Program-made: the position numbers and the translations under genes
Notes under the pieces: model-generated
What the model saw: the letters and a program-made list of their open reading frames with translations, nothing else
Database searches by the model: none
What the model was told of the DNA's origin: nothing
Shown here: positions 979 to 2,235 of the stretch, in pieces
Layout: every line of letters begins with the position of its first letter
Numbering within the stretch: position 1 is the stretch's first letter
Virus record (IMG/VR): IMGVR_UViG_2913147268_000001
Span: 1-9,341 of that record
DNA length: 9,341 nt
Reading direction: 5' to 3' (one strand)
Source of the DNA: a virus
Taxonomy: Duplodnaviria; Heunggongvirae; Uroviricota; Caudoviricetes

Positions 979-2235
979 ATACAGTTTGAGTTCTGGTTCT
1001 CGGAAAAGCGGATTGCGGATATCAGGCAGGTTGAAACCGCAGCCCGCTATCTTGGCTCGGCGCTGTACTGGATAGCTGCCAGTATCAATATCAAACCGGG
1101 CCATGATTATTATTTTTATATCCGCAGTGTGAATACTGTTGGCAAATCGGCATTCGTGGAGGCTGTCGGTCGGGCGAGCGATGATGCGGAAGGTTACCTG
1201 GATTTTTTCAAAGGAGAAATCGGGAAAACACATCTGGCCCAGGAGCTGTGGACGCAGATTGATAACGGTCAGCTTGCGCCGGACCTGGCTGAAATCAGGA
1301 CGTCCATTACGAATGTCAGCAATGAAATCACGCAGACCGTCAATAAAAAACTGGAAAATCAGAGTGCGGCAATCCAGCAGATACAGAAAGTTCAGGTTGA
1401 TACAAATAATAACCTGAACAGCATGTGGGCCGTGAAACTGCAGCAGATGCAGGACGGACGCCTTTATATTGCGGGTATCGGTGCCGGTATTGAGAATACG
1501 CCAGCAGGAATGCAGAGTCAGGTGCTGCTGGCGGCAGACAGGATTGCGATGATTAATCCTGCGAATGGCAACACAAAGCCGATGTTTGTTGGTCAGGGCG
1601 ATCAGATATTTATGAATGAAGTGTTCCTGAAATATCTGACGGCTCCCACCATTACCAGCGGCGGTAATCCTCCGGCATTTTCCCTGACACCGGACGGGCG
1701 GCTGACGGCGAAAAATGCCGATATCAGCGGTAACGTGAATGCGAACTCCGGGACGCTCAACAACGTCACGATTAACGAGAACTGTCGGGTTCTGGGAAAA
1801 TTGTCCGCGAACCAGATTGAAGGCGATCTCGTTAAAACAGTGGGCAAAGCTTTCCCCCGGGACTCCCGTGCACCGGAGCGGTGGCCATCAGGAACCATTA
1901 CCGTCAGGGTTTATGACGATCAGCCGTTTGACCGGCAGATTGTTATTCCGGCGGTGGCATTCAGCGGCGCTAAACATGAGAAAGAGCATACTGATATTTA
2001 CTCCTCATGCCGTCTGATAGTGCGGAAAAACGGTGCTGAAATTTATAACCGTACCGCGCTGGATAATACGCTGATTTACAGTGGTGTTATTGATATGCCT
2101 GCCGGTCACGGTCACATGACACTGGAGTTTTCGGTGTCAGCATGGCTGGTAAATAACTGGTATCCCACAGCAAGTATCAGCGATTTGCTGGTTGTGGTGA
2201 TGAAGAAAGCCACTGCAGGCATCACGATTAGCTGA
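979..2235 (+). pseudogene. J: Host specificity protein J, C-terminal fragment (roughly lambda aa 781 to end), lacks N-terminal ~780 aa
   Basis: Frame opens at 961 with no plausible start. Translation [79 protein letters not shown] is near-identical to lambda gpJ, then continues as a divergent C-terminal domain ending ...[14 protein letters not shown]; TGA at 2233-2235. Confidence 0.85.

Follow-up and report, generated by a model that had tools for sequence, protein, structure and literature searches.

The window, by which is meant the whole stretch of 9,341 nt that was analyzed, carries near its left end a fragment of a gene for the tip attachment or host specificity protein J (gpJ) of lambdoid phages. 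The fragment begins abruptly within the gene and resembles lambda J unevenly along its length, which raises the questions of how its architecture is to be described, which receptor its distal domain would recognize, and whether its truncation belongs to the bacterial strain or to the assembly of the genome.

Extent and domain composition of the gpJ fragment

Positions 979–2235 on the plus strand form a stop-free frame of 418 sense codons followed by TGA; the initial annotation had placed the fragment correctly in coordinates, frame and match to lambda J. In BLASTP, the translation aligned with residues 742–1131 of lambda J (NP_040600.1, from NC_001416) with 237 of the 418 residues identical and 29 gap positions. 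Matches to the Pfam families PF24489, PF09327 and PF12421 mark the product as the C-terminal, central-fiber part of a lambda-type gpJ. The fragment covers the last 1.26 kb of a gene that is common in lambdoid prophages and encodes gpJ, the central tail-fiber or host-specificity protein. Contiguous coding sequence is confined to codons 740–1157 of a parent allele of 1157 aa, and the full-length protein with the N-terminal hub domains that are needed for tail-tip incorporation is not encoded contiguously. The missing portion, put at 780 aa beforehand, comprises 739 codons of this parent (741 in lambda numbering). Codons 1–255 of the same allele were located within the locus on the opposite strand at positions 1–768, and codons 256–739 are missing from the locus. 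Downstream, the order of J, terminator (2254–2273) and lom, which starts at position 2303, is retained and is collinear with that in E2863, AVS0343 and VT1-Sakai. A scan of the window upstream of the J fragment for a sigma-70-like promoter gave nothing convincing.

Table 1. Positions in the window of the gpJ fragment, its domains and flanking elements, and of the pieces from which the locus is composed.
Feature	Position	Strand	Basis or remark
3′ part of gpJ (tip attachment / host specificity protein J)	979–2235	+	codons 740–1157 of the intact 1157-aa allele; translation, BLASTP, DNA identity
FNIII-2 remnant, residues 1–77; C-terminal three quarters, cut inside the domain	979–1209	+	93.5% identical to lambda
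AHS, residues 78–148; phage-21-type module	1210–1422	+	30.2% identical to lambda with 28 gap columns; 97% to phage 21
CSF (beta-prism), residues 149–287	1423–1839	+	71.2% identical to lambda; 95% to phage 21
Ig-like RBD, OmpC-type, residues 288–418	1840–2232	+	40.5% identical to lambda
Equivalent of the natural graft in gpJ-1A2, residues 251–418	1729–2232	+	155/168 codons translate identically
Terminator-like hairpin and T-run 3′ of J	2254–2283	+	scan; 8-bp stem, 6 GC pairs, then TTTTTATT
lom, first 380 nt; same assembly piece as the J 3′ part	2303–2682	+	980–2682 = L004 12927–14629 at 100%
56-bp terminal overlap; inverted repeat at 7567–7622 (start of lom 3′ piece)	2627–2682	+	exact-repeat scan
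Inverted piece: 214 bp I–J intergenic (769–982) and first 767 nt of the same gpJ allele (768 down to 2, ~255 codons)	2–982	−	99.8% to L004 11475–10495, L008 8400–7420
J 3′ part and lom 5′ part	980–2682	+	patchwork mapping
stf pieces	2683–3181	+	patchwork mapping
L-K-I	3175–4675	+	patchwork mapping
Lambda-like J piece, second J allele	6514–6767	+	patchwork mapping
Lambda-like J piece	6768–6932	−	patchwork mapping
lom 3′ part and downstream DNA	7161–7622	−	99.6% to L008 11961–11499
Lambda-like J piece	7622–8102	−	patchwork mapping
Lambda-like J piece, further variant of the 6514–6767 stretch	8103–8356	−	patchwork mapping
IS66 pieces	8358–9309	both	patchwork mapping

The domains FNIII-2, alpha-helical shaft (AHS), central straight fiber (CSF) and receptor-binding domain (RBD) were named after the paper on the lambda tail–LamB structure, in which the AHS spans residues 809–861 of lambda J (PMC11101478). 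In the fragment, PF24489 (Ig_J_second) was matched by residues 2–77 (profile positions 29–104 of 105, E = 4e-28), PF09327 (Phage_Tail_Tip) by residues 131–259 (E = 4e-32), and the full profile of PF12421 (Ig_GpJ_C, positions 1–135 of 135) by residues 288–418 (E = 1e-37). Likeness to lambda drops sharply at residue 79/80, corresponding to approximately positions 1215–1220, and the identity of the DNA to lambda was 85–95% at 979–1218, 13–38% at 1219–1398, 80–93% at 1579–1758 and 40–68% at 1759–2235. The shaft is 28 residues longer than the lambda AHS in the alignment. The CSF contains the equivalent of residues 902–933 of lambda J, with F211 corresponding to lambda F924; this stretch, F924 included, is the HepS trigger peptide of lambda J (PMC13043305).

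The fragment had been described previously as ~80 residues near-identical to lambda J which then diverge through to the C-terminus. The first part of this description agrees with the values for residues 1–77 and with the break at residue 79/80, but the divergence beyond is not uniform as the CSF returns to 71% identity. Relative to lambda, the pattern is that of a four-module mosaic and not of a two-part hybrid: FNIII-2 is lambda-like, the shaft and fiber are of the phage 21 type, and the RBD is of a distinct type that VT1-Sakai, PPompW and several Stx2a phages also have. Identity of the C-terminal domain with that of lambda J had been named as the outcome that would speak against a different distal domain; instead, the RBD shares 40.5% of its residues with its lambda counterpart, and DNA identity across 1759–2235 is correspondingly low. 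This value falls short of the close identity that would define a lambda-type LamB-binding RBD (lambda residues ~1001–1132).

The same allele occurs intact elsewhere. Positions 980–2682, which comprise the J 3′ part and the first 380 nt of lom, are 100% identical at the DNA level to intact gpJ and lom in many E. coli prophages. In AVS0343, where the stretch matches at 100%, intact gpJ (WP_000514710.1) occupies L004 10709–14182 and has 3474 bp and 1157 aa; a gene of the same size in E2863 (WP_000514718.1, L003 5923–9396, 3474 bp, 1157 aa) accompanies a match of 99.9%. With positions 700–2400 as query, the best match reached 99% identity or more in 857 records. Among phage records, the fragment protein was 99.8% identical over 418 residues to J of the Stx1 phage VT1-Sakai (Sp15) and of PPompW phages. 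It is textbook knowledge that lambdoid phages exchange the C-terminal modules of J. The J allele is widespread and already known, and is not a new hybrid; what had been taken for a hybrid peculiar to this copy is the normal build of an intact, widespread gpJ with which it shares 100% DNA identity.

Receptor use of the distal domain

The RBD was typed by tblastn searches with the last 161 residues against phage J proteins. The type present in the fragment was recovered at 96–100% identity in 53 records, several Stx1a and Stx2a phages among them, and the other types matched at 66% (phage 21), 61–63% (BP-4795), 44% (lambda), 44% (434) and 41.5% (WGPS6). In alignments of the RBD the identity was 64.6% with phage 21, about 42.4–43% with 434 and 40.8% with WGPS6; the value of 59.7% with A8 (PDB 9wca) was computed over the last 128 residues, a span that begins at the conserved FPR motif and is not quite that of the other values. 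The best match among PDB chains in phmmer searches was that annotated as 'A8 gpJ 713' (9wca/9wcb, E = 1.9e-166), ahead of lambda J (8xcj and 8iyk; E = 1e-145 for 8xcj). The fold of the fragment is taken as fixed because of this homology to solved gpJ structures (~E = 1e-166 by phmmer).

Receptor use by this RBD type can be read from engineered proteins. A8 and 1A2 are lambda gpJ chimeras in which C-terminal portions of natural gpJ variants are fused to lambda gpJ, and both came out of a selection with a recipient that lacks lamB (Brödel et al., Nature 2024, PMC11338833). When 23 natural ompC alleles were examined in a lamB/ompC double deletion, 21 of the 23 were served by A8 or 1A2; OmpC of both MG1655 and EDL933 was used by A8, whereas 1A2 used that of EDL933 and not of MG1655, and delivery by 1A2 in the lamB/ompC-deleted strain was set by the plasmid-borne ompC allele that was supplied (PMC11338833). 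According to a later preprint, both gpJ-1A2 and gpJ-A8 recognize EDL933 OmpC rather than LamB, and 1A2 was used in the anti-STEC vector EB003 (bioRxiv 10.1101/2025.02.28.640725).

The natural graft in gpJ-1A2 has its equivalent in residues 251–418 of the fragment, from the boundary ADISG/NVNANSG to the terminal ATAGITIS, with lambda residues in the chimera before residue 251. The graft is codon-recoded, and the comparison was made by frameshift-tolerant alignment of protein to DNA with a machine-read text in which bases had been dropped. The 13 of 168 graft codons that did not translate identically fall on evident OCR frame slips or on a spurious internal stop in the machine-read supplement. 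A 5-mer coverage test of the 1A2 sequence, in which 161 of 174 residues were covered, agrees with this alignment. The native J DNA was not found in the sequence of the Brödel supplement, where the graft is recoded. Overall, the data support the view that this RBD type binds OmpC, namely the EDL933 type and the majority of natural variants, with K-12 OmpC excluded, and that LamB is unused; the support derives from a lambda chimera bearing the last 168 aa and not from native full-length J. The original proposal that a different distal domain points to a different receptor was thus correct, in that the RBD is only 40.5% identical to that of lambda and the same 168-residue graft in gpJ-1A2 uses OmpC and not LamB, and the answer had already been published.

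It is very unlikely that the divergent distal domain still binds LamB in the manner of phage 21. Of the natural phages whose own receptor has been established by experiment, phage 21 is the nearest, with 95–97% identity in the shaft and fiber and 64% in the RBD, and the clade lies near the boundary between LamB and OmpC use: the native receptor of phage 21 is LamB, one mutation in J adds the use of OmpC, and point mutations extend the range to OmpC and OmpF (PMC11336670). However, gpJ-1A2 with the same RBD was selected on a lamB-deleted recipient and its delivery follows the ompC allele, and the 64% identity of the RBD to phage 21 is accompanied by 6-residue and other indels in loops. Assignment of the receptor directly from phage 21 as the nearest characterized natural phage was rejected on account of this limited RBD identity and of the direct data for an identical RBD. 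Similarity or clade membership alone would not predict OmpC, as phage 21 uses LamB, and 434 and phi330/WGPS6, which use OmpC, share just ~41–43% identity in the RBD.

In lambda, the order of events from docking to opening, which runs through RBD, CSF, AHS and FNIII, is known from the tail–LamB structure (PMC11101478). By analogy, the intact 1157-aa gpJ of OmpC type would act as a trimer in which the end of FNIII-2 is followed by the long alpha-helical shaft, the beta-prism fiber and the Ig-like RBD. The trimeric RBD would dock on the trimeric porin by its bottom loops, and the resulting splaying may be passed up through the CSF. The AHS would then unwind, part of it turning to beta-sheet, after which the FNIII strings would detach and the tail tip open. 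Domain composition and homology to solved gpJ proteins were observed for the fragment itself, and the successive steps are transposed from lambda.

Source of the junction at position 979/980

The window is 100% identical to positions 541874–551214 of GenBank CP027851.1 from E. coli C4435, an AIEC strain of serotype O25:H4 from Mexico, 2010 (strain table, PMC9503490). CP027851.1 (GCA_003999775.1) is deposited as a complete chromosome.

Mapping to intact tail regions divided the locus into pieces of 166–1703 bp that stem from two or more prophages, namely from their L-K-I-J-lom-stf regions, together with IS pieces (Table 1). The match of the inverted 5′ J piece ends at base 2 of the window, which is a piece boundary. 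The J alleles converge to identity over the ~100 bp that lead up to position 980, where the J/lom piece starts, and the end of this piece at 2682 is the exact ISEc12 insertion point in lom of AVS0343 (L004 14629/14630); the ISEc12 piece L017 1–1475 equals L004 16104–14630 at 100%. The lom 3′ piece is the true right-hand neighbor of the J/lom piece, but is here 4.5 kb away and inverted. In intact references the two are contiguous and overlap by exactly the 56 bp that are repeated at their ends (L008 9852–11554 and 11499–11961). Among the ORFs of the patchwork, the exact product of the truncated I (4320–4706) is present in CP027851.1, and exact look-ups of the lom–stf fusion (2303–3367) and of the chimeric J ORF at 6472–6930 on the minus strand retrieved no record.

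An exhaustive scan of the 20-kb locus detected seven exact repeats of at least 30 bp, five of which measure 56 bp, one 57 bp and one, inside the bubble described below, 47 bp. Each of the six repeats of 56–57 bp has at least one copy that abuts a mapped piece boundary; the IS1 pair (6023–6078 / 6260–6315) was left out of the mapping. The stretches 6514–6767 (+) and 8103–8356 (−) are two alleles of one 254-bp segment of J, 96% identical and with identical 56-bp ends, and are, to judge from their sequences, a de Bruijn bubble in linear layout. The repeat at 2903–2958 / 2954–3009 is the untrimmed overlap of two consecutive stf pieces. Fixed-length terminal overlaps of ~k are the signature of contigs from a short-read assembly graph, and we know of no biological process that makes them. 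The 979/980 junction itself has an overlap of 3 bp only (TAC, 980–982), and the true 56-bp partner of the piece, the middle part of J, lies outside the 20-kb locus.

None of 5,426 complete E. coli genomes spans the 979/980 junction, and the largest share of the window that any of them holds in one place is at most 44%. A 41-mer across this junction had no matches in GTDB representative genomes or in JGI metagenomes, and the 2682/2683 junction had none in GTDB representative genomes. These absences are uninformative on origin and consistent with a unique artefact.

The favored reading, to which a probability of about 0.82 is assigned, is that the fragment is the 3′ part of an OmpC-type lambdoid gpJ and that its truncation arose from the concatenation of unresolved short-read contigs in arbitrary order and orientation in CP027851.1. 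The break at 979/980 and the inverted 5′ J piece are probably a misassembly rather than a biological rearrangement, because the pieces end in fixed 56-bp overlaps, two alleles form a bubble and true neighbors are scattered. Unresolved repeat contigs from the several lambdoid prophages of the strain were probably ordered against a reference and then joined. The ends of the J piece would be branch points in the graph: the start lies where the J alleles of the strain would converge, and the end where ISEc12 would interrupt one copy of lom. Like its closest complete relatives, strain C4435 most probably carries an intact gpJ of this type in one or more copies. The initial annotation held that this copy cannot be functional as its N-terminus is missing. 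That statement describes the assembly and not the strain, the CP027851.1 locus consisting of short-read contigs with untrimmed 56-bp overlaps and its junction being in no other genome searched. A scramble of the Shigella or IS-mediated kind was also considered and was rejected, as the pieces do not meet at IS ends and their boundaries show the fixed overlaps of 56 bp.

A genuine truncation is unlikely. On that account the prophage in C4435 is decaying, and an inversion or deletion breakpoint in J codon 740 has left a promoterless, non-functional 3′ J pseudogene beside the inverted 5′ J fragment. Exactly this arrangement appears in the deposited chromosome, the TAC at 980–982 could be a 3-bp microhomology, the promoter scan was negative, and in E. 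coli prophages often decay and IS elements are often active. Nevertheless, fixed 56-bp exact overlaps at piece ends and a linear two-allele bubble have no known biological source, and pieces that adjoin one another in all intact references are here both scattered and inverted. Moreover, the junction is unique when set against the 5,426 complete genomes, and CP027851.1 is missing from the RefSeq-based set of complete genomes. Were the 979/980 junction real, a silent, promoterless 3′ gpJ cassette with fiber, OmpC-type RBD and the 5′ part of lom, placed beside the inverted 5′ J, might serve as a recombination reservoir from which lambdoid phages entering the cell, if they have the conserved FNIII-2 in common with it, could recombine in a new receptor specificity; this extension is highly doubtful.

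It is extremely improbable that the fragment works as a gene in its own right, such as an ORF of 368 aa that starts at the GTG at position 1129, whose product might block the receptor, serve as a decoy, or act as a constitutive trigger of, or antidote to, J-sensing defense. This ORF is intact and was called by gene callers in 29 collection blocks, and the equivalent of the HepS trigger peptide is kept, inclusive of F924. However, in the many genomes where it was retrieved, the 368-aa ORF results from nonsense mutations or frameshifts that split a J gene which is collinear in other respects, in no case with the junction of the window, and the truncated form as such is not conserved. In addition, the fragment begins inside FNIII-2, and the scan of the window gave no upstream promoter-like site.

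Concatenation of short-read contigs thus remains the preferred explanation. Taken together, the original observation on the sequence was sound, the receptor proposal was right but had been published, and the truncation is best explained as misassembly; the findings are in this sense already known. Their biological weight is small, as the J allele is widespread and its RBD already serves to direct engineered lambda delivery vectors to OmpC. The consequence for data quality is that the 'complete' CP027851.1 holds at least one locus of concatenated unresolved contigs, and calls of pseudogenes, truncations or rearrangements from this and similar reference-ordered assemblies are untrustworthy without read support.

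Relation to characterized gpJ proteins

The intact gpJ proteins of E. coli prophages, VT1-Sakai and PPompW phages have the same or almost the same sequence as the fragment followed by the same lom, with 99.9% DNA identity to VT1-Sakai across 980–2682. In the intact prophages gpJ is complete, is preceded by I and is collinear, whereas in the window only codons 740–1157 are contiguous. Lambda J (NP_040600.1; PDB 8iyk, 8xcj, 8xck) shares with the fragment the domain order, the Pfam families, FNIII-2 (93.5% identity) and a fiber block of 60 residues at ~90% identity. It differs in a shaft that is 28 residues shorter and of unrelated sequence (30%), in its RBD (40.5%) and in its receptor, LamB. The J protein of phage 21 (OL657228.1) is closer, with about 83.5–85% identity overall, 91% in FNIII-2, the same long shaft (97%) and a fiber that is 95% identical, but differs in the RBD (64.6%, with the loop indels noted above) and in its native receptor, which is LamB.

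The J proteins of A8 (9wca/9wcb), 434 and phi330/WGPS6 also bear RBDs of the Ig_GpJ_C type and are OmpC users. The K-12 form of OmpC is accepted by gpJ-A8 but not by gpJ-1A2. The latter is the nearest counterpart in receptor terms, as its grafted C-terminal 168 residues equal residues 251–418 of the fragment where codons are verifiable (155 of 168). The two differ in what precedes the graft: gpJ-1A2 has a lambda backbone to residue ~963, with lambda FNIII-2, a short shaft and the lambda fiber, whereas the allele in the window has its native long shaft and a fiber of the phage 21 type.

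Composition of the locus

The window lies within a ~20-kb locus of E. coli C4435 (L017 1-20387, equivalent to CP027851.1 536193-556579) which consists of a chain of 166-1703-bp pieces. These derive from prophage tail genes, IS1, IS66, and ISEc12, as well as from an unrelated inovirus-Gp2/zinc-ribbon region, and the ends of the pieces carry exact 56-bp overlaps. Although it was deposited as a 'complete' chromosome, CP027851.1 appears to hold concatenated unresolved contigs at this locus.

Features of the window discussed in the text
Feature	Position	Strand	Remark
J stretch equivalent to lambda J 902-933	1579-1674		fragment residues ~201-232
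lom-stf 'fusion ORF'	2303-3367		354 aa
Inovirus Gp2 family protein/putative zinc ribbon protein segment	4955-5558		~600 bp
Scrambled IS1 InsB pieces	5803-6327	-	
J nt ~835-1088, first version	6514-6767	+	254 bp
Lambda-like J piece	6768-6932	-	from N-terminal half of a J gene
Lambda-like J piece	7622-8102	-	from N-terminal half of a J gene
J nt ~835-1088, second version	8103-8356	-	254 bp

The Ser/Ala-rich segment of stf includes a 51-bp tandem duplication (2903-3009) which is built from two exact 56-bp copies (2903-2958 and 2954-3009) and is probably an untrimmed contig overlap instead of a real repeat expansion. The lom-stf 'fusion ORF' is a by-product, and an exact look-up found no other record of it. 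A further pair of exact 56-bp direct repeats (6023-6078 and 6260-6315) flanks the IS1 InsB pieces, and an 18-residue motif occurs twice in the 174-aa ORF in this region. The inovirus Gp2 segment shows 100% identity to a region that is situated at another chromosomal place in ST131-like and Nissle 1917 genomes, and is another misplaced repeat contig.

Alleles of J in the strain

The two 254-bp versions of J share 96% identity, match lambda at 98% (first version) and 95% (second version), and have identical 56-bp ends: the pair is an assembly-graph bubble. The type-A J allele stands at 88%. Together the three sequences imply that the strain possesses at least three J alleles and, therefore, at least three lambdoid prophages.

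The C-terminal module of J

The lambda-like J pieces are 94-98% identical to the N-terminal half of lambda's own J. In other genomes (L007 and L009), such lambda-like N-terminal 740 codons are joined to the C-terminal module of J in the window (99.8%), showing that recombination transfers the module as a whole.

In several other genomes (L005-L012 generally), point mutations interrupt the J allele seen in the window; one example, in L008 (GCA_037637725.1, ~9800-9806), is a TAT to TAG change in the PGYFQ motif, a short distance 5' of codon 740. Gene calling on such split genes yields one and the same C-terminal ORF of 368 aa, and 29 collection blocks contain it. Three of these loci (L006, L010, and L012) belong to chromosomes of 5.7-6.7 Mb on which genes are called only very sparsely, a hint that the source assemblies are error-rich.

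The prophage-encoded anticodon nuclease HepS is activated by the lambda J 902-933 peptide (PMC13043305). The equivalent stretch is conserved in the fragment, including Phe-211 which corresponds to Phe-924 of lambda J. Activation of HepS by an intact J protein of this allele would be predicted.
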